Shown in pieces: positions 2,371 to 63,656 of a DNA stretch of 64,000 nt. Source of the DNA: Patescibacteria group bacterium (GTDB lineage: Bacteria > Patescibacteriota > Minisyncoccia > Minisyncoccales > JAHCRE01); the NCBI GenBank assembly GCA_020148055.1, contig JAHCRF010000001.1:5378-69377 (forward strand). The letters run 5' to 3'. The position numbers and the translations under genes are program-made. The number at the start of each line of letters is the position of its first letter. The first letter of the stretch is position 1. A model generated the notes under the pieces. That model saw only the letters and a list, made by a program, of their open reading frames with translations. It searched no databases and was not told where the DNA came from.

Positions 2371-2790
2371 ATGGAATTTACTGTTCCCCAATTCATTGAG
2401 GAGGAACCAAAAATAGTCGGGCCCCTCACTTTTAAACAGTTTATTTTCGTTGCCGTAGCTGGAGCTGCTTGTTTTTTTCTTTATTTTTTTATTGGCGAAA
2501 AAAATTTCGCTCTTTTTTTACTAATTACCATAATCTTAATGGGAGGATCCCTGGCTCTTTGCTTTTTGAAAATTAAAGGTTATAGCTTGCCCATGATCAT
2601 AAAAAATTTTTTCACCTATTCAATCTCTGGTAAAGTTTTCCTCTGGAAAAGGAAAATTGTGCCCCCTAAATTTAAAAAGGTTGAAAAATTTGAAAAAGCC
2701 GAGGTCGAAGAAGAAGCTACATTGAAAATGGCTAAAAAAAGTCATTTACAAAGATTATCAACCCAGGTGGAAACCAAAACAATAAAATAA
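2371..2790 (+). CDS. small two-TM membrane protein, candidate VirB3/PrgI-like T4SS component
   Basis: 139 aa with two adjacent hydrophobic helices, encoded directly upstream of the VirB4-like ATPase as in Gram-positive prgI-prgJ arrangements. The assignment is by context and topology only. Confidence 0.35.
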   Translation: MEFTVPQFIEEEPKIVGPLTFKQFIFVAVAGAACFFLYFFIGEKNFALFLLITIILMGGSLALCFLKIKGYSLPMIIKNFFTYSISGKVFLWKRKIVPPKFKKVEKFEKAEVEEEATLKMAKKSHLQRLSTQVETKTIK

Positions 2791-2796
2791 AAACCT

Positions 2797-3444
2797 ATGC
2801 CAAGGGCACCTACTCAACAATTTTTAGAAATTAAGCAAATAAGAGAAGGGGTGATTGTTCTGAGAGATAAAACCTTAAGAGGAATTTTGATGCTTTCTTC
2901 TTTAAATTTCGCCTTAAAAGCTGAGGAGGAGCAAACTGCTATTTTATATCAATTTCAGGAGTTTTTGAATTCTTTAGATTTTTCTTGCCAACTTCTTGTC
3001 CAAACCCGGAGATTAAATATTACCGGTTACTTAGATAAATTGAAGGATCTCGAAGAAAAACAGGAAAATGAACTCCTGAAAATTCAGACCAAAGGCTATC
3101 GTGAATTTGTGGCTGGGATGATAAAAGGAGGAACAATAATGACGAAAAGTTTTTTTGTTATTATTCCTTTTTATCCTTCTCCTTTAGAAATCCAAGAATT
3201 TGGCGGCAAAAAAAAGCTTCCCGGAGTACCAAAAACTCCAACTTTAACTGAAGAATCTTTTCAAAGATATAAAAGCCAACTCTGGCAGAGAATGGAATTT
3301 GTTGCCTTGGGATTAAGAAGGTGTGGTCTCCAGGCCATTCCTCTAATTACTCCTGAACTAATTGAGCTTTTCTGGAAATTCTATCATCCAAAAGAAGCAG
3401 AATTTGGTTATTACCCTGAAATTCCCCCAGAATTAGCCCAGTAG
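2797..3444 (+). CDS. VirB4/TrbE-family N-terminal domain, encoded as a separate ORF (split VirB4)
   Basis: The motif IKQIREGVIVLRDKTLRGILMLSSLNFALKAEEEQTAILYQFQEFLNSLDFSCQLLVQ matches the conserved N-terminus of Gram-positive VirB4 homologues. The ORF ends with TAG then TAA, 20 nt before the ATPase ORF. Confidence 0.55.
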   Translation: MPRAPTQQFLEIKQIREGVIVLRDKTLRGILMLSSLNFALKAEEEQTAILYQFQEFLNSLDFSCQLLVQTRRLNITGYLDKLKDLEEKQENELLKIQTKGYREFVAGMIKGGTIMTKSFFVIIPFYPSPLEIQEFGGKKKLPGVPKTPTLTEESFQRYKSQLWQRMEFVALGLRRCGLQAIPLITPELIELFWKFYHPKEAEFGYYPEIPPELAQ

Positions 3445-3466: not shown

Positions 3467-5275
3467 TTGCCAAAAAATATGAAAATTCCATTTTTAAAAA
3501 GAAAAAAAGAAATAGAAATTCCCAAGAAAATATTTGAAGCAGAAATCCTCAAAGTAACTGATATTATTGCCCCTTCTTCAATTGAAATTTCTCAGAATTA
3601 TCTAAAATTGGGAGAGAAATTTGCCAGAAGTTATTTTATTTTTTCTTATCCAAGATATTTAAGTGCTGCCTGGCTTTCTCCGGTTATAAATTTAGATATT
3701 CCTCTAGATATTTCCTTTTTTATCCACCCAATTGAAACTGGAACGGTTTTGAAACAATTAGTAAAAAGGGTGACTGAAGTTCAATCAGAAATTATGGAAA
3801 GAGAAGAAAAAGGTCTTGTTCGAGACCCAGTTTTAGAAACTGCTTTCCGGGATTTAGAAGAATTAAGAGACAAGCTTCAGACCGCTCGAGAAAAGATGTT
3901 TAAATTTGGCCTTTATCTTACTGTTTATGTTGATAAAGAAGAAGATTTTAGAGCTATTGAAACTACTCTCCGCTCAATCCTTGAAGCCAGACTAATTTAT
4001 ATAAAACCAGCTCTTTTCCAACAACACGAAGGATTTATCTCCAGTTCTCCTTATTGCTTGGATCGGCTCCTAATCCATACCCCAATGAATACTGAGCCCC
4101 TCTCTTCTATCTTTCCTTTTATCTCTTTTGACTTGAGCTCCAACGAAGGGATTTTATATGGGGTAAACCGTCATAATAATTCTCTAATTTTATTCGATAG
4201 ATTCAGTTTAGAGAATGCGAATGAGGTAGTTTTTGCCAAGGCCGGTAGTGGAAAATCATATGCTGTAAAATTGGAAGTTTTACGATCCTTAATGTTAAAT
4301 GTGGACGTGATAGTTATTGATCCCGAGAATGAATATATGTTTTTATCTGATGCCGTTGGTGGTTCTTTCTTTAAAATTTCTCTAACCTCTCCAAATCATA
4401 TTAACCCTTTTGAATTACCTCCCCCCAGAGAAGATGAAAAACCGGAAGATGTTCTAAGATCGAATACTATAAACTTGGTCGGTTTATTAAGGATTATGTT
4501 AGGGGGGTTAACTCCGGAAGAAGATGCTATTATTGACAGAGCCTTAACTGAAACTTATGCCGCCAAAGACATTACCCCTGAATCTGATCCCGCTCTCTGG
4601 AAAGAAAATCTTCCTCTGATGGAAGATTTAGAAACAGTCCTGGAAACTATGGAGGGAACTGAATCATTAGTGAGAAGGTTGCAGAAATTCACCAAAGGAG
4701 CCTACTCCTCGTTTTTCAACCAACCTTCAAATATCTCAATGGAAAACAACATGGTTATCTTCGGAATAAGAGATATGGAAGAAGAGTTAAGACCAATGGC
4801 CCTTTATATAATTTTGAGATATATTTGGAAGACAGTCAGAGCCACTCTTAAAAAAAGAATTTTGATTGTTGATGAGGCTTGGTGGTTAATGCAATCAGAA
4901 GACGGAGCTTCATTCCTCTATGGAGTTTGTAAGCGAGCAAGGAAATACTGGTTGGGGGTAACAACAATTACCCAGGATATCGGAGATTTTATGAAGTCAT
5001 CCTACGGTCAACCAATCATTACCAACTCTTCTTTACAACTTTTATTAAAGCAATCACCAGCCACAATCGACATCGTCAAAAAAACCTTTCTTTTAACTGA
5101 GCAAGAAAAATATATGTTGTTAGAAGCAGCAGTAGGTGAGGGGTTATTTTTCGCCGGGCAAAAACACGTCGCCATAAAAGTAGTTGCCTCTTATGCTGAA
5201 GACCAGATAATTACCACAGCCCCTGAAGAAGTTTTAAAAATAAGAAAAGCAAAAAAAGAGTTAGCTGAAGAATAA
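3467..5275 (+). CDS. VirB4/TrbE-like type IV secretion ATPase, C-terminal ATPase portion
   Basis: Walker A FAKAGSGKSYAV, Walker B ILIVDEAWWLM (the DEAW signature) and the C-terminal TTITQDIGDF motif. 602 aa; with the upstream 215-aa ORF this totals about 817 aa, typical of full-length VirB4. Confidence 0.75.
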   Translation: MPKNMKIPFLKRKKEIEIPKKIFEAEILKVTDIIAPSSIEISQNYLKLGEKFARSYFIFSYPRYLSAAWLSPVINLDIPLDISFFIHPIETGTVLKQLVKRVTEVQSEIMEREEKGLVRDPVLETAFRDLEELRDKLQTAREKMFKFGLYLTVYVDKEEDFRAIETTLRSILEARLIYIKPALFQQHEGFISSSPYCLDRLLIHTPMNTEPLSSIFPFISFDLSSNEGILYGVNRHNNSLILFDRFSLENANEVVFAKAGSGKSYAVKLEVLRSLMLNVDVIVIDPENEYMFLSDAVGGSFFKISLTSPNHINPFELPPPREDEKPEDVLRSNTINLVGLLRIMLGGLTPEEDAIIDRALTETYAAKDITPESDPALWKENLPLMEDLETVLETMEGTESLVRRLQKFTKGAYSSFFNQPSNISMENNMVIFGIRDMEEELRPMALYIILRYIWKTVRATLKKRILIVDEAWWLMQSEDGASFLYGVCKRARKYWLGVTTITQDIGDFMKSSYGQPIITNSSLQLLLKQSPATIDIVKKTFLLTEQEKYMLLEAAVGEGLFFAGQKHVAIKVVASYAEDQIITTAPEEVLKIRKAKKELAEE

Positions 5276-5847: not shown

Positions 5848-6588
5848 TTATTTATCTGCGGGTTCTGTCGCCAGAGCAGGCTTCCTAAAAATAAAATATT
5901 GCTGAATAATTGAAAAGGTTGTTGTCACTATCCAATAAAGTCCAATAGCTGAAGGTAATTTTAATAAGATGAAAAAAGTGAAGATAGGAAAAACATAGAG
6001 GGTCTGTTTTTGGAGAATCTTTGAAAATTGGCCTATTCTATCCTCCATTTTAATTTCTTGAACTTTTGGGGTAATCATTTTTGTCTGGATAAATTGAAAA
6101 ATGCCAGCGAGAATTGCTAAAATGAGCGAGGGTTGACCAAGATTCATTATTCCAAGAAAAGTGGGGTTGATTTGTCCGGGCTTAGGAACAAAATAATAAA
6201 GATTAATCATTTCTCCAGGAACCAATCCTTTACGAAATACTTGGTAGAGGGCGATTAAAATCGGGAGTTGAATTAACAAAGGTAGACAACCGGAGAAGGG
6301 ATTAATTTTTTCTTTCTGATAAAGTTCCATCATTGCCCGAGTCTGCTTTTCTTTATTGTCTTTGTATTTTTTCTGAATTTCCCGAATTTTTGGTTGGAGC
6401 TCCTGTAAAACTTTCTGAGATTTGATTGCCTTAATTCCTAAAGGATAAAATAAAATTCTGATTAAAATTGTCAAAAGAATTATTGCTATTCCGAAGTCTT
6501 GACCAGGTAAATATTGATAAAACAAAATCAGAATATTGAATAATGGCTTGTATAAAATTAGATTGAAAAGATTAATAAAAAATTCCAT
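5848..6588 (-). CDS. yidC: membrane protein insertase YidC/Oxa1
   Basis: Multi-TM protein with the C-terminal YidC signature SAIGLYWIVTTTFSIIQQ. Member of the rnpA-yidD-yidC cluster. Confidence 0.85.
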   Translation of the reverse strand: MEFFINLFNLILYKPLFNILILFYQYLPGQDFGIAIILLTILIRILFYPLGIKAIKSQKVLQELQPKIREIQKKYKDNKEKQTRAMMELYQKEKINPFSGCLPLLIQLPILIALYQVFRKGLVPGEMINLYYFVPKPGQINPTFLGIMNLGQPSLILAILAGIFQFIQTKMITPKVQEIKMEDRIGQFSKILQKQTLYVFPIFTFFILLKLPSAIGLYWIVTTTFSIIQQYFIFRKPALATEPADK

Positions 6589-7588: not shown

Positions 7589-8938
7589 ATGAATCACGAA
7601 GAACTCTGGCAGGCAGTCCTTGCCCAAATTCAATTAAATATTTCCCAAGCTAATTTTGCCACCTGGTTTAAGAACACCAGAATCCTTGGTAAAAAAGAAG
7701 AAAAGGTGGTAATCTCTGTTCCCAATTCTTTTGCCAAAGAGTGGCTCGAAAATAAATATAATAAGTTAATTTTCAAAATTTTACATAGTTTAGACGAAGG
7801 AATTAAAGGAGTAAGATATGAAATAGGTAAAACCGGCCTAAAGGTTTTTAAAAAATCTCCACTGCCTATTTCAGAAACCGAACAGCTTGAGTTTCCAGAA
7901 TTTAAAATTGATAAAGAAACCAATCTCAATCCTCGTTATGCTTTTGAAAATTTTGTAATAGGCCCTTTTAACGAACTCCCTCAAGCAGCTGCCTGGGCAG
8001 TGACAAAAAATCCTGGGTCTATCTACAATCCATTATTTATTTATGGAGGGGTTGGTCTGGGTAAAACCCATTTACTTCAAGCCATCGGTAATGAAATCGT
8101 TAAAAATTTTCCTAAGAAAAAGATAAGATATATTCCCTGTGAAAAATTCACCTCAGGAATCATAAACTCAATCAGAAATCATAGTATTGAAAGTTTCAAG
8201 TCAAAATATCGAGCAATTGACATTTTAATTATTGACGATGTCCAATTTCTGGCTGGGAAAGAAAAAACTCAGGAAGAGTTCTTTCACATCTTTAACACTT
8301 TATATGAAAGAGATAAACAGATAATCCTTTCTTCTGATCGATCGCCAAAAGCCATTCCAGCTTTGACCGAGAGATTGAGATCTCGTTTTGAAGGAGGAAT
8401 GATCGCTGATATATCTTTGCCTGACCTTGAAACAAGAATAGCTATTCTTAAAACTAAAGCCCAAGAAAAAAGAATCAATTTCCCCAGTGAAGTTTTTTCT
8501 TATATCGCCACAAAAATCCAAAAAAATATTAGGGAACTAGAAGGAGCTTTAAATAGATTAATAGCCTACCAGAAACTAAAAAAACAAGTTCCTGATGTTG
8601 AAACCACTAAAAACCTTTTAAAGAAGATAATCATTTCTCCAGTTAAAATAACCACTCCAAAAAAAATAATCCAGGGGGTAGCTGAGTTTTACGATCTCAA
8701 GGAAAAAGATCTTCAAAGCTCTTCTCGAAAAAAAGAAATCGTTAAACCCCGTCAGGTAGCAATGTATTTATTAAGAGAGATATTAAAATGTTCTTATCCT
8801 TTTATCGGTAGAAAATTTGGAGGGAGAGATCACACCACCGCTATCCATGCTTACGGAAAAATCCTTAAAGAGTTAGAAAAGGATGAAAATCTGAAAGAGG
8901 AAATCAACTTAATAAAACAGAGAATATCAAGTGTCTAA
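7589..8938 (+). CDS. dnaA: chromosomal replication initiator DnaA
   Basis: AAA+ Walker A GGVGLGKTHLL and a C-terminal DNA-binding domain. 449 aa. Confidence 0.95.
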   Translation: MNHEELWQAVLAQIQLNISQANFATWFKNTRILGKKEEKVVISVPNSFAKEWLENKYNKLIFKILHSLDEGIKGVRYEIGKTGLKVFKKSPLPISETEQLEFPEFKIDKETNLNPRYAFENFVIGPFNELPQAAAWAVTKNPGSIYNPLFIYGGVGLGKTHLLQAIGNEIVKNFPKKKIRYIPCEKFTSGIINSIRNHSIESFKSKYRAIDILIIDDVQFLAGKEKTQEEFFHIFNTLYERDKQIILSSDRSPKAIPALTERLRSRFEGGMIADISLPDLETRIAILKTKAQEKRINFPSEVFSYIATKIQKNIRELEGALNRLIAYQKLKKQVPDVETTKNLLKKIIISPVKITTPKKIIQGVAEFYDLKEKDLQSSSRKKEIVKPRQVAMYLLREILKCSYPFIGRKFGGRDHTTAIHAYGKILKELEKDENLKEEINLIKQRISSV

Positions 8939-9062
8939 ATTATAGAAAAGAAAAGAATAAATCTTTAACTAAAAATTATTCCCAATTTTTCAACAGTTCC
9001 TCCTATAAATAAAACCAAGTCTATTTATATTTAAAAAAAATTTATCCCCAAAACCAACAATA

Positions 9063-10193
9063 ATGAAATTAAAAATATTACAAAGTAAATTAAAAAAGGG
9101 ACTTAATATTGTTGAAAGGGTTTCTATAAAATCTTTAACTTTACCGATTCTTAATAATATCTTAATTAAAGCTGAAAAAAATTTTTTAAATCTTTCATCT
9201 ACTGACTTAGAAATAGGAATTAAATGGTGGGGTCTAGCAAAAATTGAAAAAGAGGGAGCAATTGTTATTCCGGCTAAAGTTTTTTCGAATTTTGTCGGAT
9301 TTTTACCTGAAGAACCAATAAATTTAAAAATTGAAAATCAAACTTTAATTATTGAATCAGAAAAATATAGTACCCAAATCAAAGGTTTTAATCCTGAAGA
9401 GTTTCCTATTATTCCACAAATTACCACAGGGGAATCTATTATTATTAATAGTCTCTCCTTTTGTCAGGGTTTAAATCAAGTTGTTCAAATACCTATTCTT
9501 TCTTCAGCTAGACCGGAAATCTCAGGAATTTATTTCTCATTTCAAAAAGATTTGATAAAAATAGTAGCTACTGATAGTTTTCGTTTAGGAGAAAAAAGAC
9601 TTTTTTTAAAAGAAGCCCTTCCTCTCCATCAAGAGTATTCCTTGATCTTACCTCAAAAAGCGGCTAAAGAAATAATCAATATTTTTAGCGAAAAAGAAGG
9701 GAAAATTAAAATTTACTTTTCAACTAATCAGATTTTATTTGAATCCTCTATAAGAGAGACCCCCCACCCTAAAATTCAACTCATCTCCAGATTAATTGAG
9801 GGTGAATATCCAGATTACCAAGCTATTTTTCCTAAAAAATCTGAAACCCAAATTATTCTGAAAAAAAATGAACTTTTAAATCAACTAAGAACAGCTAGCC
9901 TTTTTGCCTCTAAAATGAATGAGGTAAAATTAAAAACGGATATTAAAAAAGGAGAAATTGAAATTTTTAGTCAGAATCCTGATTTAGGAGAATATCATTC
10001 CTTTCTTTCTGGAAAAATAAACGGGAAAGAGGTGGAAGTCTCTTTTAATTATCGATTCTTAATTGATGGTCTTTTAAATATAAAAAGCTCAGAGGTGATT
10101 TTTGAGTTGAATGGAGAAGAAGGGCCATCCGTTTTAAAACCAGTTGCTGATCCAAGTTATGTTTATCTGGTTATGCCTATTAAGCCAAGTTAG
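9063..10193 (+). CDS. dnaN: DNA polymerase III beta sliding clamp
   Basis: 376-aa three-domain clamp immediately downstream of dnaA. Similarity is by length, context and overall pattern. Confidence 0.85.
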   Translation: MKLKILQSKLKKGLNIVERVSIKSLTLPILNNILIKAEKNFLNLSSTDLEIGIKWWGLAKIEKEGAIVIPAKVFSNFVGFLPEEPINLKIENQTLIIESEKYSTQIKGFNPEEFPIIPQITTGESIIINSLSFCQGLNQVVQIPILSSARPEISGIYFSFQKDLIKIVATDSFRLGEKRLFLKEALPLHQEYSLILPQKAAKEIINIFSEKEGKIKIYFSTNQILFESSIRETPHPKIQLISRLIEGEYPDYQAIFPKKSETQIILKKNELLNQLRTASLFASKMNEVKLKTDIKKGEIEIFSQNPDLGEYHSFLSGKINGKEVEVSFNYRFLIDGLLNIKSSEVIFELNGEEGPSVLKPVADPSYVYLVMPIKPS

Positions 10194-20380: not shown

Positions 20381-20487
20381 CGAATCTACTTTTATTTTAT
20401 ACCAAAAATAAAAAAAAAGCCAAAAGCCTTTTCACTAATAACTAAGAACTATCAACTAATAACTAAAATTGCAAAGCAATTTTCCAG

Positions 20488-20560
20488 TGCCTCCAGCAGG
20501 AGTCGAACCTGCAACTCACGGCTTAAGAGGCCGTTACTCTTCCAATTGAGTTATGGAGGC
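20488..20560 (-). tRNA. tRNA-Lys (anticodon CUU)
   Basis: Cloverleaf folded by hand: acceptor GCCTCCA/TGGAGGC, anticodon stem ACGGC/GCCGT, loop CUCUUAA, T-loop GGTTCGACTCC. Confidence 0.85.
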
Positions 20561-20569
20561 AAATTATGG

Positions 20570-21718
20570 TTATGGTACTGGACAGTTAATAGTATGCCAA
20601 CTCTGAAAGGGACTACCAGCTGGGGTTAGAAAAACGACAATTGTATTCACAATCAACCAAGCAGCCAGGACAATGACTAGACCAATTACAGTTGCTTTTA
20701 AAAGCTTTTTTCCTCCTCTGATTTTTTCTGGGTCTCCTGTGGCAGTCAAAAGCATTATTCCACTAATTACGAACATTAGAACTGCCAAGGGGAAAATGAT
20801 ATTTACAGTCACATAATCAACAACCCTTTTAAATAAGACAAGAATATGGCAGAGAGTACAAGGAGCGCTCTCATCAAGAGCTGTACCTGGATCATCTACT
20901 AACCTTCCACAAGGGACAAGTCCTCCATAAAGGCATTCCCAAATAATAAGAGCATCAGTATCATTACAATCCCAACATCCTATTATCCCAGGAGGTAAAT
21001 CAGTTGGATCACAGGGACAATCCATAGTCATAAAGCCATCTCCATCTCCATCCCAGGCGGCCATCATTACTGCAGCATAAATATCGTCAGCCATATCGGC
21101 GGGAGTTCCGCCCCAAATAAATTTTTTATCATTAGCCGTAGTACTAACAACTAAATCGTTCATACTATTGCTACAACAACCGCTAGCTCCATCTCCTTCG
21201 AGTGGAAAAACATATACACCATTGGCATCGGCTGCATTAGCTGCGTTAACTATTGAATCATTGTCATCATTACTCGGTGTATCGATAACTCCATCATCGG
21301 TGCACCCATTCCCACAATAGGGCCCCTCATCACTTATTGGCATAATTATTTTGATTGGTGCCGTCCAGGGATAATTCTGAGCTCTATCTTCAACAGCTGG
21401 TCCCCATTGTTCTCTGTCACCATGAGGAGCGCCACACCCAGCATAAGGAAGAACACCTGTTGCACATACTTTAAGCATATCAATGCCATATATTGTATAC
21501 TTTAGAATAACGTCTTTTTTCTCTAAACTATCAACTACATCATCAATAACATTACAAAGAGTAATCCATTCATTATTCATTGAACCGGAAGTATCTACTA
21601 CAAAAACAATTTCAGCATCAATGACACACAATTCTGCATCAGCTGAAAAAATAGGAATAATTCCTATTAAAATAGATATAATTAAGAAATATAAAACAAA
21701 TATTTTTTTATTTCTCAT
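20570..21718 (-). CDS. secreted vWA-like adhesin domain fused to Cys/Asp-rich region and a C-terminal VirB2/TrbC-like pilin hairpin
   Basis: Signal peptide; vWA MIDAS-like IVFVVDTSGSM; D/G/C-rich middle. The C-terminus CTLCHILVLFKRVVDYV ... TATGDPEKIRGGKK ... is homologous to the small pilin-like proteins at 62175-63621 (shared RV.D.V motif and G-D/S-P-E/D-K loop between two TM helices). Confidence 0.5.
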   Translation of the reverse strand: MRNKKIFVLYFLIISILIGIIPIFSADAELCVIDAEIVFVVDTSGSMNNEWITLCNVIDDVVDSLEKKDVILKYTIYGIDMLKVCATGVLPYAGCGAPHGDREQWGPAVEDRAQNYPWTAPIKIIMPISDEGPYCGNGCTDDGVIDTPSNDDNDSIVNAANAADANGVYVFPLEGDGASGCCSNSMNDLVVSTTANDKKFIWGGTPADMADDIYAAVMMAAWDGDGDGFMTMDCPCDPTDLPPGIIGCWDCNDTDALIIWECLYGGLVPCGRLVDDPGTALDESAPCTLCHILVLFKRVVDYVTVNIIFPLAVLMFVISGIMLLTATGDPEKIRGGKKLLKATVIGLVIVLAAWLIVNTIVVFLTPAGSPFQSWHTINCPVP

Positions 21719-21846
21719 ATTAGATTATTATAATACTTTTTTATTTAAATATAAATTTTAAATTCTTAACTTTTTAAATTGATAAGGCAGTTTTACCCCA
21801 CCCTGTTTTTTAATTATAGCCAAATTTTAAATTTTACAAAACATTT

Positions 21847-21918
21847 GTGCCCTCGCCAGGACTCGAACCCGGATCTTCTGTTCCGAAGACAGAGATGTTA
21901 TCCATTACACCACGAGGG
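21847..21918 (-). tRNA. tRNA-Arg (anticodon UCG)
   Basis: Acceptor GCCCTCG/CGAGGGC, anticodon stem TCTGT/ACAGA, loop CUUCGGA, T-loop GGTTCGAGTCC. Confidence 0.8.
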
Positions 21919-21976
21919 CATATTTAATTGTATCAGAATAATTGAAAAATTCAATATTTTGAGTTAAAATAAAGTC

Positions 21977-36272: not shown

Positions 36273-38021
36273 ATGCGTGTTGAACCGGGACAATTAAAAG
36301 CCTTTCTTTTAGACGCTGGTTTGGTTACCAAAGAGAAATTCGAGAAGGCTCTAAAAAAAGCTGAAAAGACCGAACAGAAAGTCGGGGATGTTTTAATTTC
36401 TGAAGGTTTGATTACCCAAGAGGAACTAATTAAACTCGAGGCCTATATTTTAGGAGTTCCTTTTGTGAATTTAGAAAAAGAAATCATTTCTCCGGAAGTT
36501 TTAAAGCTTATTCCTGAACCAATTGCCAGATCCCATAATATTGTTGCCTTTAGAAAAAAGGGAAAAACTTTAGAAGTAGCCATGTTGGATCCAGAAGATT
36601 TAAGGATGATTGAGTTTATTAAAAAGACTGCTAACCTTAAAATCCTACCAAGGCTAACTACTCCAGGCTCTATTAAAAATGTTTTGCGTCAATACCAAAA
36701 AACTTTGGAGGCTGAATTTGGCGAAATTATAAGAAAGGAAGCTGGGGAAATAATTCCAATAAAGGAAGAAGAAATAGTGGAGGAAAAAGAGGAACTAAAA
36801 AAAGTAGCCAAGGAATTACCAGTAATTCGGATTGTCGATACCTTGTTAAAACATGCCATTTTACAGAGAGCTTCTGATATTCATATAGAACCAACAGAAA
36901 AAGAAGTAATGATTAGATATCGAATTGATGGAATTTTACATGATGCCATGGTCCTTCCAAAACAAGCTAGCTCAGGAATTGTAGCCAGGATTAAAGTTCT
37001 CTCTGATTTGAAGCTAGATGAACATCGACTCCCCCAAGATGGTCGATTTAAAATTGAAACTGAGGAATATCGCTATTCTCTTCGAGTTTCCATTCTCCCA
37101 GTTTTTGGTGGGGAGAAAATCGTTATGCGCCTTTTACCAGAAGAAGCCAAGGTTCTTACTTTAGAAGGCTTAGGACTAAGAGGAGAAGCTTTAGAAAAAA
37201 TTCTAATTAATTTAAGAAAACCAGCGGGAAAGATTTTGATTACTGGTCCCACCGGCTGTGGAAAGACCACAAGCCTGTATGCTATGCTGGAGATTTTAAA
37301 TACTCCGGCAGTCAATATTTCAACTATTGAAGATCCAATTGAATACCGAATACCCAGAATCAATCAGACTCAGGTTAACCCAAAAATCGGCCTCACTTTT
37401 GCTTCTGGTTTAAGAACTTTAGTCAGACAGGATCCAGACATTATCATGGTTGGAGAAATTAGAGATAATGAAACCGCCGGTTTAGCTATCAATGCTGCCC
37501 TGACCGGACATTTAGTTTTGTCAACTTTGCATACTACCAACGCTGCCGGGGCCGTTCCCAGATTGATTGATATGAAAGCTGAACCATTTTTGATTTCCTC
37601 AACTTTAAATTGTATTTTAGCCCAGAGATTGGTCAGAAAATTTTGTAAAGAAAAAGAAAAATATAATCTATCAGAATCAGAAATAAAAAATTTAGAAAGA
37701 TACTGCAATTTGAATAGAATTTTGCAGATTTTAAAAGAGGAAAAAATTGTTAAAAAAAATCAAACCTTCAAAGATATTGAGTTTTTTCGACCGAAGTCCT
37801 CAAAAGAATGTCCAGAGGGCTACAAAGGTCGAATTGGAATTTTTGAAATTTTACCAATTACTGAAACTATAAAAGAGTTAATTGTTAAGCGGGCTACTTC
37901 GGATCAGATTCAGGCTCAGGCACAGAAAGAGGGGATGAGGACGATGATTGAAGACGGTTTCGTTAAAGCAGCCCAAGGAATAACCAGTATTGAGGAGATA
38001 TTACGAGTCATTATAGAATAA
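36273..38021 (+). CDS. pilB: type IV pilus assembly ATPase PilB (GspE family)
   Basis: N-terminal GSPII_E_N-like domains; Walker A GPTGCGKTT and the GspE Asp/His boxes. 582 aa. Confidence 0.85.
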   Translation: MRVEPGQLKAFLLDAGLVTKEKFEKALKKAEKTEQKVGDVLISEGLITQEELIKLEAYILGVPFVNLEKEIISPEVLKLIPEPIARSHNIVAFRKKGKTLEVAMLDPEDLRMIEFIKKTANLKILPRLTTPGSIKNVLRQYQKTLEAEFGEIIRKEAGEIIPIKEEEIVEEKEELKKVAKELPVIRIVDTLLKHAILQRASDIHIEPTEKEVMIRYRIDGILHDAMVLPKQASSGIVARIKVLSDLKLDEHRLPQDGRFKIETEEYRYSLRVSILPVFGGEKIVMRLLPEEAKVLTLEGLGLRGEALEKILINLRKPAGKILITGPTGCGKTTSLYAMLEILNTPAVNISTIEDPIEYRIPRINQTQVNPKIGLTFASGLRTLVRQDPDIIMVGEIRDNETAGLAINAALTGHLVLSTLHTTNAAGAVPRLIDMKAEPFLISSTLNCILAQRLVRKFCKEKEKYNLSESEIKNLERYCNLNRILQILKEEKIVKKNQTFKDIEFFRPKSSKECPEGYKGRIGIFEILPITETIKELIVKRATSDQIQAQAQKEGMRTMIEDGFVKAAQGITSIEEILRVIIE

Positions 38022-38022
38022 A

Positions 38023-39243
38023 ATGCCAAAGTTTTTCTATACTGCTAAATCTTTTAAAGGAGAAATAAAATCAGGAATTTTAGAAGCCAAAGATGAGCAT
38101 CAGTTAGCTAGAACCCTTCGCCAGGAAGGATATATTTTAATTTCAACAAGTTTAGAAAAAGAGATTGGGAAAGGGAAATTTAAGATTTCCCTTCCTTTTT
38201 TTGGAGGAGTATCCTTGACCGAAAAAATGATGTTTACCAGAAATCTTCGGATAATGATTGCTGCCGGTATATCTCTGCCCCGGGCTTTAGAAACTTTAGC
38301 TTCGCAGTCAAAAAGTAAAAAATTCAAGAAGGCTTTATTAGACGTAGCTGATGAGATTACCAAAGGAAGAAGCTTTTCTGATTCTTTAACTAAATATTCT
38401 GATATTTTCTCCGAACTCTTTATTAGCATGATAAAAGTAGGAGAGGAGGCAGGAACTCTAGAAGAGGTTTTAAAAATTTTAACTAATCAGATGGAAAGAG
38501 AACATGAATTAGAATCTAAAGTTAAAGGTGCGATGATTTATCCGGCGGTTATTATTTTTACTATGATCGGTATTGGAGTTTTAATGCTGATTATGGTTGT
38601 TCCAAGATTGGCTGAGACTTTTGAGGAATTGGCAATCGAGCTTCCTCCGACCACTAAGTTGGTAATTTTCCTTGGTAATTTTTTGGCTGAGAAATGGGCT
38701 TTAGCTGTCTTAATAATTCTCGCCCTTTTAATTTTATTTAGGATAATTTTAAAAACAAAGAGAGGAAAAAGAACAACCGATTTTCTAACTTTAAGAATTC
38801 CTATCATCTCCCCCATTATTAGGAAAACTAATTCAGCCTATACTGTTAGGACCTTAGCTTCTCTTATTACCTCAGGAGTGCCAATTGTCCGGGCTTTGGA
38901 AATTGTCTCGGGAGCCCTGGGAAATATTTACTTTCAAGAAGCAATGGCAGACGCCAGCGAGAAAGTTAGAAAGGGTTCTAAACTTTCCGACGCCTTGAGA
39001 TCCCATGAAGGAGTTTATCCTTCATTAGTTATTCAGATGATTGAGGTAGGGGAAGAAACTGGAGAAACTTCGACTATCCTGGCTAAGCTGGCCGATTTTT
39101 TTGAAGAGGAGGTTACCAATGCTACCAAAAATTTAACGGCAGTTATTGAACCAATCTTAATGCTTCTTATCGGAGGGGCTGTAGGATTCTTTGCAATTTC
39201 AATGATTCAGCCAATATACGGGATGTTAGGAGCAGTAAAGTGA
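38023..39243 (+). CDS. pilC: type IV pilus platform protein PilC (GspF family)
   Basis: Two GspF repeats with three TM segments. 406 aa, immediately downstream of pilB. Confidence 0.85.
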   Translation: MPKFFYTAKSFKGEIKSGILEAKDEHQLARTLRQEGYILISTSLEKEIGKGKFKISLPFFGGVSLTEKMMFTRNLRIMIAAGISLPRALETLASQSKSKKFKKALLDVADEITKGRSFSDSLTKYSDIFSELFISMIKVGEEAGTLEEVLKILTNQMEREHELESKVKGAMIYPAVIIFTMIGIGVLMLIMVVPRLAETFEELAIELPPTTKLVIFLGNFLAEKWALAVLIILALLILFRIILKTKRGKRTTDFLTLRIPIISPIIRKTNSAYTVRTLASLITSGVPIVRALEIVSGALGNIYFQEAMADASEKVRKGSKLSDALRSHEGVYPSLVIQMIEVGEETGETSTILAKLADFFEEEVTNATKNLTAVIEPILMLLIGGAVGFFAISMIQPIYGMLGAVK

Positions 39244-40148
39244 ATTCAAAATTCAAAATTCAAAATTCAAAATTGAATGTCGGGGTTACTCTTGTTGAGT
39301 TAGTGGTGATTATTGGGATTTTAGTTATTTTAGCTCTCATATCTGCCCCGGTCTTCCGTTTTTTTCAAAAAGAGTCAGATTTAAATAATAACACTGAGGA
39401 AATTATCAATACCTTAAGATTTGCTCAAAATAGAACTCTGGCTTCTGAAGGAGCTAGTCAATACGGAGTCTATTTTGATAACACTACCTCTCCCCATCAA
39501 TATACCTTATTTAAGGGCACAGATTTTGCTTCTAGAGATAGTTCTTCTGATGAAATTCATAAATTAGCAAAAGCAGTAGAGTTTTATGAAATTAATTTAA
39601 ATGGAGGAAATGAGTTGGTTTTTGATCGAGTAACGGGGAAAACTAGCCAACCTGGTAATGTTTCTTTAAGATTAAAAGTAGATCTTACAAAAACTAAGAC
39701 TATCTACATTGAGAGTTCTGGTCAGGTGGGGCTGACTATCCCGTCAGTCCCTACTGATGGTCAAGTAGAAGATTCCAGGCATGTTCATTCTGATTTAGGA
39801 TGGAGTATTCAAAACTCCACTGCTTTAAAATTTTCTTTTCCCGATATCCCACAAGTAGAAACCATAGATATGGCTGATTATTTTAATACTGGTAAAACAG
39901 AATTTGATTGGGAAGGAACATTTTCTGTAGGCGGGATCGACCAAATATTCCGAGTTCATACCCATGCTCTTGATGCATTTAATACTCTTCTCTGTATTCA
40001 TCGTAATCGAAACGATGGGAAAAATAACCAAGAAGTAATAATTTATATTGTCGACGGGGGAATAGATAAAGATATCGCCCATTATTTAGCCGATGCAGTA
40101 GATACTGTGGAAAAAGGTTTTTATGTTAATACAATGGAAAGACAATAA
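39240..40148 (+). CDS. type IV pilin-like protein (prepilin N-terminus), 302 aa
   Basis: Leader ...KLNVG then VTLVELVVIIGILVILALI, with Glu at +5 after the putative G cleavage site. The start is ambiguous: GTG 39240 or TTG 39273. Confidence 0.65.
   Translation: MNSKFKIQNSKLNVGVTLVELVVIIGILVILALISAPVFRFFQKESDLNNNTEEIINTLRFAQNRTLASEGASQYGVYFDNTTSPHQYTLFKGTDFASRDSSSDEIHKLAKAVEFYEINLNGGNELVFDRVTGKTSQPGNVSLRLKVDLTKTKTIYIESSGQVGLTIPSVPTDGQVEDSRHVHSDLGWSIQNSTALKFSFPDIPQVETIDMADYFNTGKTEFDWEGTFSVGGIDQIFRVHTHALDAFNTLLCIHRNRNDGKNNQEVIIYIVDGGIDKDIAHYLADAVDTVEKGFYVNTMERQ
39244..39271 (+). repeat. heptanucleotide tandem repeat (ATTCAAA)x4 at the pilC stop / pilin start
   Basis: attcaaa x4 read directly from the sequence, followed by the degenerate unit attgaat. 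It overlaps the first codons of the GTG-initiated pilin ORF. Confidence 0.8.
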
Positions 40149-40608
40149 AAAGGGAATATCAGTCATAGAAATTCTAATAGTTATCGCTATTATTGGTATT
40201 GCTTTGACTAGTCTTTTAGGCGTAGCCGCCTTTTCTTTAAAGGTTTCCGTTTCAATAAAAGAGACCACTCAGGCCAATGCTTTAGCCCAGGAGATAATTG
40301 AGGCAGTCAGAAATTTTCGAGATGGAACAACTTGGGATAGTGATGGTCTAGGAACTTTAACCACCAGCCTTGCTTATTATCCTCAAAAAACAGCCGATAC
40401 TCCTCCAAAATGGACCCTAATTCAGGGCGAAGAAACAATTAATGGTTTCACTCGAAAAGTGATTTTTGCAGATGTTATGAGGGATGCCAGTGATAATATT
40501 GTCGGAACTGGTGGAATAAATGACCCCAATACAAAAAAGGTGACCGTAACTGTTTCCTGGAAAGATAAAAAGGTAGAAATAGTAACCTATTTTACTAACT
40601 GGAAATGA
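40123..40608 (+). CDS. type IV pilin-like protein, 161 aa
   Basis: Leader MLIQWKDNKKG then ISVIEILIVIAIIGIAL (class III signal, E+5). Overlaps the preceding gene by 26 nt. Confidence 0.65.
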   Translation: MLIQWKDNKKGISVIEILIVIAIIGIALTSLLGVAAFSLKVSVSIKETTQANALAQEIIEAVRNFRDGTTWDSDGLGTLTTSLAYYPQKTADTPPKWTLIQGEETINGFTRKVIFADVMRDASDNIVGTGGINDPNTKKVTVTVSWKDKKVEIVTYFTNWK

Positions 40609-41126
40609 TGAAGAAACCACTTCAAAGAAGTTTCACTTTAATGGAAATTTTAGTTTATATTGCAGTTCTTTCTATTGTAATTACGGCTATTGTCTCGTTT
40701 GTTCTCTGGTTTATTCATTCCAATACTAAAACTAAGGCAATGCGAGAAACCTTGGATAATGCAAGAAGAGTTATGGAAATAATGACCTATGAGATCAAAG
40801 AGGCAAGAAGCATTTATGCACCAACTACTACTTCTACTCAACTCTCTTTGGAAACAACAAAATATTTGCCAGAAGGAGAAGAGACAAGCTTCATTGATTT
40901 TTATCTTTGTGATTATCGTCTCTGTCTTAAAAAAGAATCCCGAGATTCAATTGCTTTAACTTCAGATAGTGTGGAAATAAATAATCTGGTTTTTACCCGA
41001 ATTGTCTCTGGAGAAGTCCCTTCTATCCAGATTGATTTAACAATTGATTACAAAAACCCAACTAATCGACCAGAATATCAAGCCTCAGTTGGTTTAAAAT
41101 CAACTGTCTCTTTAAGAGAGTATTAA
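40605..41126 (+). CDS. type IV pseudopilin-like protein, 173 aa
   Basis: MMKKPLQRS then FTLMEILVYIAVLSIV hydrophobic N-terminus with E+5. Ser rather than Gly at -1. Confidence 0.55.
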   Translation: MMKKPLQRSFTLMEILVYIAVLSIVITAIVSFVLWFIHSNTKTKAMRETLDNARRVMEIMTYEIKEARSIYAPTTTSTQLSLETTKYLPEGEETSFIDFYLCDYRLCLKKESRDSIALTSDSVEINNLVFTRIVSGEVPSIQIDLTIDYKNPTNRPEYQASVGLKSTVSLREY

Positions 41127-41127
41127 A

Positions 41128-42936: not shown

Positions 42937-42960
42937 AAATTTTAAATTCAAAATTTCAAA

Positions 42961-42990
42961 TGTGGCCTAGGGCCACTTTTTATTTTTATT
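42961..42990 (+). terminator. hairpin terminator after the pilX-like gene
   Basis: GTGGCC-TAG-GGCCAC followed by TTTTTATTTTT. Confidence 0.5.
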
Positions 42991-43014
42991 TTTAATGATA
43001 TAATTAATTAGAAA

Positions 43015-44214: not shown

Positions 44215-44220
44215 AAAATT

Positions 44221-44742
44221 ATGATTAATCTTTTACCGCCAAAAGAAAGAGAGAATTTAATTCAAGAAGAAAATTGGAAATTGGTTTTAATTTTAGGAAT
44301 CCTTTTTTTATCTCTTTTAATGTGTTTGATTTTAATTTTACTTTCGATTCAGATTTATAACTCTGGAAAAATTCAATCTCAGAAAGTTATTATTGAGATT
44401 GGGGAAAAAGAGTTTGAAGATCCAGAGACTCAAAATTTTCGGAAAAAAATTATTTTAATTAATCAAAATTTTTCGAAATTAAATTCTTTTTATCAGAGTC
44501 AGACTAATTTGATTGAGATTTTGGAAAAAATCTCGGGAACTTTTCCTGAAGAGATATATTTAACCTCCCTTTCTTATCAAAAAGAGAATCTCCAAATTTC
44601 CCTCTCAGGATATGCTCCCAACCGCGAGGTCTTAGTTGGATTTAAGAAGAATCTTGAAAAAGAATTTCCAGATGCCCATTTTTCACCCCAAAGTTGGTTT
44701 GAACCAACCGATTTTCAAGTAAATTTCAAAATTGTTCAATGA
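44221..44742 (+). CDS. pilN: PilN-like bitopic membrane protein
   Basis: Single N-terminal TM after a short cytoplasmic MINLLPPKERE, a conserved PilN-type start. 173 aa. Confidence 0.55.
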   Translation: MINLLPPKERENLIQEENWKLVLILGILFLSLLMCLILILLSIQIYNSGKIQSQKVIIEIGEKEFEDPETQNFRKKIILINQNFSKLNSFYQSQTNLIEILEKISGTFPEEIYLTSLSYQKENLQISLSGYAPNREVLVGFKKNLEKEFPDAHFSPQSWFEPTDFQVNFKIVQ

Positions 44743-62122: not shown

Positions 62123-62174
62123 GTTTAGTCTTTACTAAATTATAGTCTTTGCTAAAATTAACTAATATTTGTTT

Positions 62175-62510
62175 ATGAAGCCTTATCTAATTAAAAAAAT
62201 AATTTTTCCAATACTTTTATTCTCTTTTTTGATACCTTTTTTGGCTGAGGGAATAGTAATTCCCAACCCTCTTGATGCTACTACATTTGAAGAGTTGATT
62301 GAAAAACTTATTGATCTCATTTTTTGGGTTGCTGTAGCCATTACTCCCCTTATGATTATTGTTGCCGGTTTTTATTTTGTAACAGCAGCTGGTGATCCAG
62401 AAAAAATTAGGAAAGCTAAAAATATAATTTTATGGACAATAGTCGGACTTGCTATAGTTTTACTTGCCAAAGGAATAATTTCTATGATAAGACAAATAAT
62501 AGGAGGATAA
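62175..62510 (+). CDS. small secreted VirB2/TrbC-like pilin-family protein (signal peptide + two TM hairpin)
   Basis: Signal peptide, then LIDLIFWVAVAITPLMIIVAGFYFVTAAGDPEKIRKAKNIILWTIVGLAIVLLA. The G-DPEK loop between two helices is shared with the 20570-21718 and 62581-63621 proteins. Confidence 0.45.
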   Translation: MKPYLIKKIIFPILLFSFLIPFLAEGIVIPNPLDATTFEELIEKLIDLIFWVAVAITPLMIIVAGFYFVTAAGDPEKIRKAKNIILWTIVGLAIVLLAKGIISMIRQIIGG

Positions 62511-62580: not shown

Positions 62581-63036
62581 ATGAATAATATGAGAAAAAT
62601 TATTTCAGTTCTAATCTTAGCTGCTTTGCTTTTACCCCTAGTTGCTTTAGCTCAGATAGAGGTAAAGGAGTGCTGTACTCTTCATAAAACAATTACAGTT
62701 GAGGGAGACACCTGTGCCGAAGGTGATGTAGCAGCTCCTGATGCAGCAGCAGCTGCAGATTGTGCAGGAGCCTACTGTGCAGCTTCAGCAGATGCTTGGG
62801 GAATGTTTTGTCTTTTAAATAGCATTTACCGAGTTACTGACTGGGTCTCTTACATCTTATTTGCTTTTGTTGGAGTGATGATAATTATTGGAGCCTTTAC
62901 AATTGTTACAGCTGGTGGATCGCCCGACAAGGTGTCTTCTGGAAGAAATTACATTGTGTATGCGATCATTGGTTTAGTAGTTGCCTTTTTTGCCAGGGCT
63001 ATTCCTGCTCTTGTCAAGGCAGTGATAGGAATGTAA
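62581..63036 (+). CDS. Cys-rich secreted VirB2/TrbC-like pilin-family protein, paralogue 1
   Basis: Signal peptide ending ALAQ; six-Cys ectodomain; conserved LLNSIYRVTDWVSY; two TM helices separated by TAGGSPDKVSSGRN. Confidence 0.5.
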   Translation: MNNMRKIISVLILAALLLPLVALAQIEVKECCTLHKTITVEGDTCAEGDVAAPDAAAAADCAGAYCAASADAWGMFCLLNSIYRVTDWVSYILFAFVGVMIIIGAFTIVTAGGSPDKVSSGRNYIVYAIIGLVVAFFARAIPALVKAVIGM

Positions 63037-63656
63037 AGAGAGAAAAATTTGGTAAATTTTAACTTCTTGTTCGGAGAGAATAAGAGATTTTGATTGAATT
63101 CGAAATGCAGAGAGTTGAGCAAAATAACTTCCGGCTTTAGAGTCTGCGGTCCAAGAAACAATATGAGCAAAATTATTTTAGTTTTAGCTTTGGTAAGTTT
63201 ATTGAGCCTCTTGCTTTTACCAATGGTAGCCTTGGCTCAGATAGAAATAAAGGAGTGCTGTACTCTTCATAAAACAATTACAGTTGATACGGTTACCTGT
63301 AACGAAGATACTGTGGCAGCTCCTGATGCAGCAGCAGCTGCAGATTGTGCAGGAGCCTACTGTGCAGCTTCAGCAGATGTTTGGGGAATGTTTTGTATTT
63401 TGAATACTATTTACCGAGTTACTGACTGGGTCTCTTACATCTTATTTGCTTTTGTTGGAGTGATGATAATTATTGGAGCCTTTACAATTGTTACAGCTGG
63501 TGGATCGCCCGACAAGGTGTCTTCTGGAAGAAATTACATTGTGTATGCGATCATTGGTTTAGTAGTTGCCTTTTTTGCCAGGGCTATTCCTGCTCTTGTC
63601 AAGGCAGTGATAGGAATGTAAAGAGAGAAAAATTTGGTAAATTTTAACTTTCTATT
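62641..63656 (+). repeat. tandem direct duplication (two ~430-nt copies at a period of about 590 bp) spanning the two Cys-rich pilin-like genes
   Basis: 62722-63068 and 63310-63656 are almost base-for-base identical, including the shared 3' flank TAAAGAGAGAAAAATTTGGTAAATTTTAACTT. The 5' portions are diverged. Confidence 0.7.
63163..63621 (+). CDS. Cys-rich secreted VirB2/TrbC-like pilin-family protein, paralogue 2 (tandem duplicate)
   Basis: C-terminal about 100 aa and the 3' UTR are nearly identical at DNA level to 62581-63068. The N-terminal ectodomain segment differs (DTVTCNEDTVA versus EGDTCAEGDVA). Start placed at ATG 63163 (MSKIILV). Confidence 0.5.
   Translation: MSKIILVLALVSLLSLLLLPMVALAQIEIKECCTLHKTITVDTVTCNEDTVAAPDAAAAADCAGAYCAASADVWGMFCILNTIYRVTDWVSYILFAFVGVMIIIGAFTIVTAGGSPDKVSSGRNYIVYAIIGLVVAFFARAIPALVKAVIGM

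Follow-up and report, generated by a model that had tools for sequence, protein, structure and literature searches.

A vWA head on a VirB2-like pilin module: a candidate swappable adhesin at a constant-anchor locus in Patescibacteria

What does a vWA domain do on a pilin-like membrane hairpin, in a gene lodged between two tRNA genes of an episymbiotic bacterium? The question is raised by an open reading frame (ORF) on the minus strand of a 64,000-nucleotide stretch of DNA from a Patescibacteria group bacterium (GenBank assembly GCA_020148055.1, contig JAHCRF010000001.1, positions 5,378 to 69,377), referred to below as the window. A sequence-only reading had described the product as a secreted vWA protein with a pilin-like C-terminus, possibly a tip or adhesin pilin, in an islet inserted between tRNA genes. 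Using structure models, family profiles and comparison of related loci, we find that it is very probably a surface-exposed vWA protein carried on a pilin-family module at a locus where heads are swapped. The explanation that accounts best for the data, and which we hold to be slightly favoured overall, is that a swappable vWA adhesin head is displayed by a VirB2-like pilin module at a constant-anchor locus.

A vWA head, a stalk and a pilin-family module in one protein

The ORF begins with ATG and encodes 382 amino acids (aa), an exact match to NCBI entry MBZ9578270.1, which is labelled 'TrbC/VirB2 family protein' and comes from a 137-kb contig. The plus strand across the same region (20570-21718) holds only short unsupported ORFs of 47-92 aa. 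From the N-terminus to the C-terminus, the gene and its parts are:

20570..21718, minus strand: whole gene, vWA-headed VirB2-like pilin of 382 aa (ORF list and exact protein match)
21635..21718, minus strand: predicted signal peptide, residues 1-28, with MRNKK, a hydrophobic core and SADA (sequence reading and hydropathy)
21053..21634, minus strand: vWA domain, residues 29-222 (model fold, Foldseek and profile matches)
21581..21595, minus strand: metal-ion-dependent adhesion site (MIDAS) motif D42-T-S44-G-S46, DxSxS (invariant columns of alignments A1 and A2)
20933..21052, minus strand: Asp/Cys-rich stalk, residues 223-262, DGDGDGF...CPCDP...GCWDCNDTD...C (composition and alignment)
20828..20932, minus strand: module neck, residues 263-297, YGGLVPCGR..DDP.T..E..PCTLCH (more than 90% conserved in 167 modules)
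20744..20827, minus strand: first hydrophobic helix, residues 298-325 (both models, hydropathy, PF18895)
20699..20743, minus strand: short basic loop, residues 326-340, TGDPEKIRGGKKLLK (conserved G328, P330 and K337)
20624..20698, minus strand: second hydrophobic helix, residues 341-365, with conserved G345 and W354 (models, hydropathy, conservation)
20573..20623, minus strand: predicted extracellular tail, residues 366-382, TPAGSPFQSWHTINCPVP (W374 and C379 conserved)

Taken by itself, the 382-aa sequence would give only a weak vWA call: the single-sequence Pfam matches to VWA_2 (E 0.017, 16.1 bits against a cutoff of 27) and VWA (E 0.028, 15.1 bits against 23.8) fall below threshold and cover residues 37-67 only. 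The model and the family profiles, however, confirm that the N-terminal head is a vWA domain. In the AlphaFold model residues 29-222 alternate between beta strands (33-41, 70-79, 122-129 and 168-170) and alpha helices at a predicted local distance difference test (pLDDT) score of 80-93. When the full model was compared with the PDB by Foldseek, the top 17 matches were integrin beta I-like and alpha I domains together with another vWA protein (best E 1.4e-4, probability 0.99-1.00). The TM-scores were modest, at 0.5-0.56 on isolated I domains and lower on larger targets.

A profile built from an alignment of ten head sequences (A2) points the same way. Against PDB sequences it matched the integrin alpha-X and alpha-L I domains (E 1.3e-4), with SpaC among the weak matches; on the alpha-X I domain, DTSGS aligns with DGSGS and PISDEG with VITDGK. 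Against 5.8 billion proteins it retrieved proteins that carry Pfam VWA, VWA_2 or VWA_4 (E 4e-40 to about 1e-8), some of them named 'vWA domain-containing protein'. Members of the head family also match Pfam in their own right, five of 14 to VWA (best 1.8e-5) and four of 14 to VWA_4 (2.9e-8). A profile was needed for such searches, since the head as a single query returned merely its two closest orthologues owing to the word index. The vWA N-terminus named in the sequence-only reading, for which a structural check of the N-terminal half had been suggested, is thus borne out by the model, the head profiles and the matches of family members. The head alignment shows no variation at D42, E103 or D130, the last of which (within PISDEG) matches the 'TDG' motif of vWA domains, and D-x-(S/T)-x-(S/T) is retained in 11 of the 12 orthologues that cover the MIDAS motif.

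The head contains eight Cys and is strongly acidic. Beyond it, the sequence-only reading had seen a long Asp/Gly/Cys-rich middle. The composition is as described, residues 131-262 containing 16.7% Asp, 11.4% Gly and 6.8% Cys, but this is not a separate region: residues 131-222 form the second half of the vWA fold, and the distinct Asp/Cys-rich stalk is limited to residues 223-262 (22.5% Asp, five Cys). D223, D225, D227, C236, C248, D250, D253 and C262 are invariant in alignment A1, and the stalk is probably a small spacer stabilised by disulfides or by bound metal. One other family member contains a Pfam MopE motif.

The C-terminal part belongs to the T4SS_pilin family PF18895 (type IV secretion system, T4SS), with residues 305-360 matching at E 1.8e-12 and 47.6 bits against a cutoff of 26.6. 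The protein has the layout of that family: behind a signal peptide come two hydrophobic helices, linked through a short basic loop. Hydropathy marks segments 3-35, 298-330 and 337-369, the last two connected by TATGDPEKIRGGKKLLK. A separate model of the 121-residue module has two 35-residue helices at an overall pLDDT of 88; the first spans residues 28-63 of that model at pLDDT 90-98 and residues 289-324 of the full model. By the positive-inside rule the basic loop is predicted to be cytoplasmic, or to face the lumen if the module is in a fibre, and the head, neck and tail are predicted to lie outside the cell. The tail ends ..SPFQSWHTINCPVP. Neither its W374 nor its C379 varies in A1, and both are conserved at about 90% among 167 modules. 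Across those modules GLVPCG, PCxLCH, GG, G.P, K337, G345, W354, W374 and C379 are conserved at about 80-99%, compared with 50-80% for the helices, and C379 is probably disulfide-bonded to the neck. Between proteins with unrelated heads the module is 60-76% identical, which far exceeds what a plain membrane anchor would need and also exceeds the 25% average among array pilins.

Export is indicated by the N-terminus. The predicted signal peptide contains a Kyte-Doolittle hydrophobic segment, forms a helix at residues 2-19 in the model and reads as likely to be cleaved right ahead of Glu29 and Cys31; orthologues have AxA-like sites right before the conserved Cys31. None of the protein's 17 Cys lies within a hydrophobic helix, all being in parts predicted to be outside, and the ectodomain has a net charge of -32. 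The ORF and the predicted signal peptide therefore agree with the earlier description of a 382-aa secreted protein.

The window encodes three further PF18895 pilins (E 8e-14 to 3.8e-10), and a scan by tblastn and HMM found no additional pilin-type gene in it:

62169..62510, plus strand: stand-alone PF18895 pilin of 113 aa, first of a three-gene array (Pfam, BLASTP)
62581..63036, plus strand: PF18895 pilin of 151 aa with a Cys-rich N-terminal part (Pfam, BLASTP)
63094..63621, plus strand: PF18895 pilin, 175 aa as listed (Pfam; 86% identical to the 62581-63036 product)

That the C-terminus of the 382-aa protein is homologous to these proteins, as had been claimed, holds: BLASTP against the 113-aa and 151-aa pilins gives E 1e-10 and 5e-8 across the two-helix region, and the loops align as TATGDPEK, TAAGDPEK and TAGGSPDK. 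The relationship is nevertheless a distant one. In a joint alignment the array pilins are 24-31% identical to the module, end directly after helix 2 and have neither the GGLVPCG/PCxLCH neck nor the W..I.C tail. The 382-aa protein is not a close paralogue of the array; it is a distinct subtype with a Cys neck (GGLVPCGR...PCTLCH) and a Cys tail (W..I.CP). We considered the array as the source of the slot module and rejected it on the same grounds of low identity and missing neck and tail.

Within the array, the second and third products, at 86% identity, seem to stem from a recent duplication; their differences are concentrated in two places, the signal peptide and the Cys-rich N-terminal portion. 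For the third ORF, the TTG start that is listed probably lies too far upstream.

A conserved slot with variable contents

The tRNA-Lys and tRNA-Arg genes said to flank the gene are both placed by ARAGORN, on the same strand as the gene:

21847..21919, minus strand: tRNA-Arg(tcg), upstream boundary of the slot, at the same position in 16 related loci
20487..20560, minus strand: tRNA-Lys(ctt), downstream boundary of the slot, its 5' end 9 nt past the stop codon

Because ARAGORN finds 20 tRNA genes within the 64-kb window, such flanking is not unusual by itself and is weak evidence for anything. We therefore turned to what lies between these boundaries in 16 distinct related loci, making 17 places with the window; all of the relatives are metagenome-assembled. 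The order cca (divergent), tRNA-Arg(tcg), one to four genes, tRNA-Lys(ctt), rpsO, NYN, pnp is kept in every one of the related loci, and tRNA-Pro(cgg) and tRNA-Ala(cgc) often follow beyond cca, as they do in the window. In three loci the tRNA-Lys gene falls within the run of slot genes, and in one locus it was not captured. Each slot examined contains at least one pilin-module gene and none is empty. Their contents are listed below, where some ORF starts in the relatives overrun tRNA-Arg and the small pilins are shorter than listed:

Window: vWA-pilin, the single ORF between the tRNAs
L001 and L007: 303-aa protein and vWA-pilin P0002
L004: 180-aa protein, 515-aa pilin fusion, vWA-pilin P0006, 291-aa protein
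L087: 310-aa protein, vWA-pilin P0011; past tRNA-Lys a 277-aa protein and a 545-aa pilin fusion
L088: vWA-pilin-dockerin P0004
L090: 331-aa P0020 with a Cys-rich non-vWA head
L091: 129-aa ORF, 837-aa fusion, 407-aa fusion; past tRNA-Lys a 111-aa pilin
L092 and L094: proteins of 494, 195, 400 and 321 aa
L093: 599-aa protein
L008, L010, L011, L012, L017, L022 and L029: small stand-alone pilins

These comparisons separate two ideas that the sequence-only reading had joined when it called the locus an islet at an insertion hotspot. The contents do vary, hypervariably so in gene number and head domain, and 'variable slot' is an apt description; 'acquired islet' is not. Recent arrival of the gene with a mobile element that inserted next to a tRNA would fit the two flanking tRNA genes and the guanine-plus-cytosine (GC) content of 0.41-0.43 within the gene against 0.35 for the window. 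Yet presence or absence, the proposed check on the islet, gave occupied slots throughout: the same tRNA/cca/rpsO slot is filled by a pilin module in all related loci, including distant ones with small pilins. No integrase or mobility gene lies between tRNA-Arg and tRNA-Lys in the window, no att-like or tRNA-derived direct repeats were found at the slot, and the module had no match in plasmid and phage collections. The raised GC follows from a composition rich in Asp, Gly, Ala and Cys (pnp itself reaches 0.41), and the module has diverged from that of L090 (72.6% identity) at about the rate of neighbouring housekeeping genes (75-81%). We consider a recently acquired islet highly improbable.

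What varies instead is the head. The closest relative by cca and pnp is L090, with identities to the window of 81% for cca, 75% for pnp and 78% for rpsO. Its slot protein matches only residues 263-381 of the 382-aa protein (the 72.6% aa identity given above), and its head is unrelated. At the DNA level, blastn similarity between the window and L090 is confined to tRNA-Arg, the module (20640-20926, 78.7% nucleotide identity) and the tRNA-Lys junction, with none across the promoter, signal peptide, head and stalk. By both blastn and blastp the homology breaks off just inside the neck, at 20926 (residue 265). The more distant L001, with a pnp identity of 61%, still has the vWA head, with 57% identity along the full length. 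Together, the two comparisons indicate that the anchor and flanks were inherited vertically while the head was replaced at the neck breakpoint. Single-linkage BLAST clustering of slot heads placed all non-vWA heads in one cluster, probably through common Cys-rich repeats, so we claim only two head classes (vWA and non-vWA Cys-rich) besides headless pilins.

Exchange of this kind bears on what the head is for. A constant anchor with a swappable head is what one would expect of a locus that determines host recognition by an episymbiont, and on present evidence we regard a function of the vWA head as an adhesin for the host cell as evenly balanced. The head might instead serve the machine itself, for example by VirB5-like nucleation or capping, metal chelation or envelope organisation. 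vWA domains do occur in intracellular and assembly roles, Mg-chelatase ChlD-type names appear among the distant profile matches, and three relatives have, beside the vWA-pilin, a conserved single-pass membrane protein of about 300 aa. However, the head is dispensable at the locus, close relatives having other heads or none, and a head that can be replaced is hard to reconcile with a role internal to the machine. Extracellular vWA/MIDAS domains are, moreover, recurrent tip adhesins in two other classes of pilus, one of which supplies the weak match to SpaC. We thus consider a non-adhesin head improbable.

Several smaller observations concern the slot and its expression. The single-pass protein lies at L001 614-1525, L004 7402-8277 and L087 4079-5011; its copies are 25-33% identical to one another, one has a weak DUF4352 match, two overlap the start of the vWA-pilin, and it is absent from the window. 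A gene for an HNH_repeat protein sits between UPF0102 and cca at L088 2253-3152 and L093 1379-2281, and is likewise not in the window; it represents a small insertion, variable between genomes, close to the slot. Upstream of the slot pilin gene there is a promoter-like element:

21727..21755, minus strand: TTTATA-17-TATAAT, 10 of 12 matches in a consensus scan (consensus match only)

Its 3' end is 8 nt ahead of the ATG, and no Shine-Dalgarno sequence is visible upstream of that start. From this stretch (21719-21755), the mRNA may be leaderless or nearly so. At the other end, the tRNA-Lys(ctt) gene begins 2-3 nt past the slot pilin gene in L001, L087 and L090, so that in four genomes the stop codon and the tRNA 5' end are 2-9 nt apart:

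Window: stop-codon/tRNA-Lys junction at 20560-20572
L001: junction at 2661-2665
L087: junction at 6272-6276
L090: junction at 5996-5999

This short gap, and the fact that no terminator is predicted around the slot pilin gene, suggest that the gene and tRNA-Lys(ctt) are co-transcribed and that the 3' end of the mRNA arises through tRNA processing.

Fibre subunit or membrane anchor

If the head is exchanged and the module is constant, what does the module do? A search with the 121-residue module among 1.84 billion gave 10,933 cluster representatives at E <= 1e-3, of which 1,539 reached E <= 1e-10. The 216 closest proteins, some of which may be fragmentary gene calls, reach 1440 aa; 36 are essentially stand-alone modules and 180 have extra regions, with an N-terminal extension only in 76, a C-terminal one only in 55 and both in 49. 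Pfam searches of 89 long members recognised nothing in most of them. The domains that were found are VWA (five proteins), NHL, SGL or Vgb-lyase beta-propellers (about seven), SLT (two) and, in one protein each, Kelch, GH52, cytochrome b5, a dockerin, InlB-type repeats and the MopE motif. The vWA head subfamily of the window's protein recurs in about 19 of the 216, some with an added PKD or other N-terminal domain; it is a mobile surface module.

Two observations from the same searches stand beside this. Heads of the same subfamily are found with PEP-CTERM-like tails in other bacteria (P0223 and P0226) and, in P0218, behind a different N-terminal domain. Some module proteins contain four to eight tandem hairpins and exceed the Pfam TrbC threshold (P0107 of 820 aa, P0111 of 606 aa, P0190 and P0159); such chains could represent pilin oligomers linked covalently, or else polytopic membrane proteins.

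A link to type IV secretion comes from the smaller members of the family. The core T4SS genes of the window lie a few kb from dnaA (7589-8938; dnaA/dnaN region 7589-10193):

2371-2790, plus strand: PrgI/VirB3-like (Pfam PrgI E 3.4e-8)
2797-3444, plus strand: conserved 215-aa ORF (no significant Pfam match)
3467-5275, plus strand: VirB4-like ATPase (TraG P-loop E 6.9e-23, AAA_10)

Homologues of the 215-aa ORF (E about 1e-49) are present in L039, where the gene is flanked by prgI and virB4, and in L080, where it follows prgI in a match stretch that stops before virB4; from this position beside prgI, the ORF probably encodes a T4SS component that has no name yet. Directly upstream of these genes (prgI-orf215-virB4 in L039, prgI-orf215 in L080) there are stand-alone GLVPCG-subtype pilins, and in L015, L026 and L028 such pilins are found within 6 kb of virB4. 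Such proximity was seen in only five of 79 module-bearing loci.

In the literature, VirB2-like pilins are reported from 1948 Patescibacteria assemblies, near virB4 in 1135 of them, in arrays of two to 11 divergent pilins with an average identity of 25% (Quinonero-Coronel et al. 2025, PMC12102498). The T4SS and the pilin array are essential in S. epibionticum (Wang et al. 2023, PMC10633639), and reviews call the function of the Patescibacteria T4SS completely unknown and its pilus only potential (PMC11665869, PMC12857230).

Other genes deserve mention here. At L015 4752-5909 (and also in L026 and L028) a pilin hairpin with a C-terminal lytic-transglycosylase-like region adjoins the GLVPCG pilin, about 4 kb from virB4. 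In P0082 and P0090 the hairpin is fused to a Pfam SLT domain (VirB1-like activity), and the 385-aa protein of L015 is SLT-like by eye. The window also holds a complete type IV pilus cluster at 36273-45299, with a PilB-like ATPase, a PilC-like platform, PilM, PilN and four N-methyl/PilX-type (pseudo)pilins, one of 602 aa. With the T4SS, this would give the cell two filament systems.

We propose the following scheme. The protein would be exported by Sec and its signal peptide cleaved, leaving the hairpin in the membrane with both termini outside. Neck and tail cysteines would staple the ends of the hairpin together, in a functional parallel to TrbC/VirB2 cyclisation. Next, the module would either be taken up by the VirB4 machine and built into a fibre in which small pilins, like those of the 62-63.6 kb array, predominate, or stay docked in the membrane. 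In either case the MIDAS site of the vWA head would bind an acidic ligand on a partner cell, and the module as the constant part and the head as the variable part would together have a role in host specificity.

A number of findings weigh against the adhesin-pilin reading, some of them against its head and most against its fibre. Orthologue P0004 has lost the MIDAS motif and P0005 has DSTLT in place of DTSGS; the equivalent of the MIDAS Thr is not assignable in the head alignment, where the invariant Glu103 may act as its substitute. In the module, TrbC/VirB2 Pfam PF04956 reaches only 18.6 bits against a cutoff of 27.9 (E 0.0022, model positions 41-98), over the same helices as PF18895; single-hairpin relatives score 24.9-26.3 bits and multi-hairpin proteins alone exceed the cutoff. 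Foldseek of the module against the PDB returned nothing significant, the best match being an ATP synthase c subunit (E 1.1), with an archaeal conjugation pilin at rank 49 only in a list otherwise made of generic helical hairpins. The fold is too generic for this search to be informative, and we do not count the result as a negative. A module profile run against PDB chains matched no VirB2 or TraA, only spurious low-complexity helical sequences. We accordingly use 'VirB2-like' on the basis of Pfam membership, the sub-threshold TrbC match, gene neighbourhood elsewhere and the literature, not of structure. The slot gene lies 15 kb from virB4, amid housekeeping genes and outside the T4SS operon. 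By a rough geometric estimate, a helical fibre of the VirB2 type would be crowded if each of its subunits bore a 230-residue head. Finally, no experiment shows a pilus from any Patescibacteria T4SS (PMC11665869, PMC12857230, PMC10633639).

Many of these findings would be explained if the two-helix module were a membrane anchor only, one that never polymerises and possibly docks on a secretion machine or a cell-wall apparatus. The breadth of the family suits such an anchor: the 180 extended proteins among 216 include enzymes (SLT, GH52), beta-propellers and proteins of more than 1000 aa, the five to eight tandem hairpins of P0107 and P0111 resemble polytopic membrane proteins, and vWA heads of the same subfamily are carried elsewhere on PEP-CTERM-like tails. 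The generic hairpins of the structural search and the position of the gene outside the T4SS operon agree with it too. Against an anchor stand the conservation of the module, since an identity of 60-76% that includes neck and tail exceeds the needs of lipid anchoring, and the position of small family members next to prgI/virB4 (PMC12102498 and the loci described here). The head is also only about 60 residues from the helices. In a monoderm envelope a membrane-bound head would probably sit beneath the wall or S-layer and probably fail to reach the host, which mildly favours a fibre. Overall, the anchor-only explanation appears rather unlikely to us.

Incorporation of the 382-aa protein into a T4SS fibre is a tentative proposal, which we rate below an even chance. 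Were it so incorporated, the surface of an F- or T-type pilus would be too small for a 4-nm domain at full occupancy, and the headed subunit would have to be minor or terminal; the tip or adhesin pilin role suggested in the sequence-only reading is plausible. The adhesin-pilin reading can be widened: the Patescibacteria VirB2-like pilin, seen here in a Parcubacteria/Paceibacteria-like lineage, might also be a general display scaffold for exchangeable outside heads (vWA, beta-propellers, Cys-rich domains, lytic transglycosylase and dockerin), with the rpsO-side slot as its head-swapping site and an occupant in or at the tip of the T4SS fibre that sets the host. In this full form we consider the proposal doubtful.

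Looking ahead, the adhesin-pilin reading would, if true, provide the first T4SS pilin with a built-in adhesin, and would open both host specificity and the role of the essential Patescibacteria T4SS to genetic study. Pilin modules with ligand-binding or wall-cutting heads are testable candidates for contact with the host and for its breach, and a locus that replaces heads on a constant anchor between constant flanks is a place to seek host-range determinants in metagenomes. For the study of T4SS in general, natural VirB2-type pilins extended by a folded domain at one end or the other would mean that large cargo is tolerated by the scaffold. If the module is an anchor only, its 10,933 cluster representatives would mark a previously undescribed and very abundant route of surface display in the phylum.

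Comparison with known systems

The searchable full-text literature, outside which most subscription papers lie, yielded no description of headed VirB2-like pilins or of the cca-rpsO slot. A survey of Patescibacteria T4SS does not discuss domain fusions of pilins (PMC12102498), and a structure-clustering preprint notes only the abundance of PF18895 in freshwater. Public domain-architecture tables will already show such fusions; the finding is not categorically new.

The nearest known relatives are the VirB2-like pilins of Patescibacteria (PMC12102498, PMC10633639), which share with the slot protein PF18895, a signal peptide, two helices, a (T/S)AxG(D/N/S)P...K loop and the phylum. The window itself matches the layout described for them, with PrgI/VirB4 near dnaA and a three-gene array of small pilins (PMC12102498, PMC10633639). 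The described pilins, however, are small, arrayed and often near virB4, whereas the slot protein is encoded by a single gene in a tRNA-bounded slot beside rpsO, has a 230-residue vWA head plus stalk, and belongs to the subtype with Cys neck and Cys tail.

Two kinds of variable locus also invite comparison. Tied to tRNA genes, genomic islands resemble the slot in being bounded by tRNAs and in differing in content between relatives. Here, by contrast, there is no integrase or att site, the slot is never empty, and the flanks and the 3' module are vertically conserved. Loci that combine a constant anchor with a variable head, through cassette exchange of pilins or receptor-binding proteins in pathogens and phages, share the sharp breakpoint and the varying number of paralogues, but in the window we saw neither silent cassettes nor a recombinase nor a diversity-generating retroelement.

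With the classical pilins VirB2 of Agrobacterium, TrbC of RP4 and TraA of F, the slot protein has in common a leader, a hairpin with a basic loop and the placement of both termini outside. TrbC, VirB2 and TrhA are cyclised head to tail, which the probable disulfide between neck and tail would resemble. Mature classical pilins comprise about 70-120 residues with no extra domain, compared with about 354 aa including a vWA domain and stalk for the mature slot protein, which also scores below the TrbC Pfam cutoff and has no sequence or fold match to solved pilins. Its host is, in addition, a monoderm, a setting in which VirB2 pilins are otherwise unknown according to the literature.

The head finds its parallels among other pili. 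PilY1 (type IV pili) and the sortase-pilus proteins RrgA, GBS104 and SpaC are vWA/MIDAS tip adhesins. They present a MIDAS-bearing vWA domain at the end of a filament for attachment, as the slot protein would if it is placed in a fibre. Those adhesins are separate proteins, attached non-covalently (PilY1) or by sortase to pilins of unrelated fold, whereas in the slot protein one translated chain comprises both the vWA domain and the VirB2-type hairpin. The tip protein VirB5 and the Gram-positive PrgB, to which the slot protein has no homology, are alike in being proposed to make target-cell contact for a T4SS. PrgB-like adhesins have not been detected in Patescibacteria (PMC12102498), and headed pilins could fill that gap.

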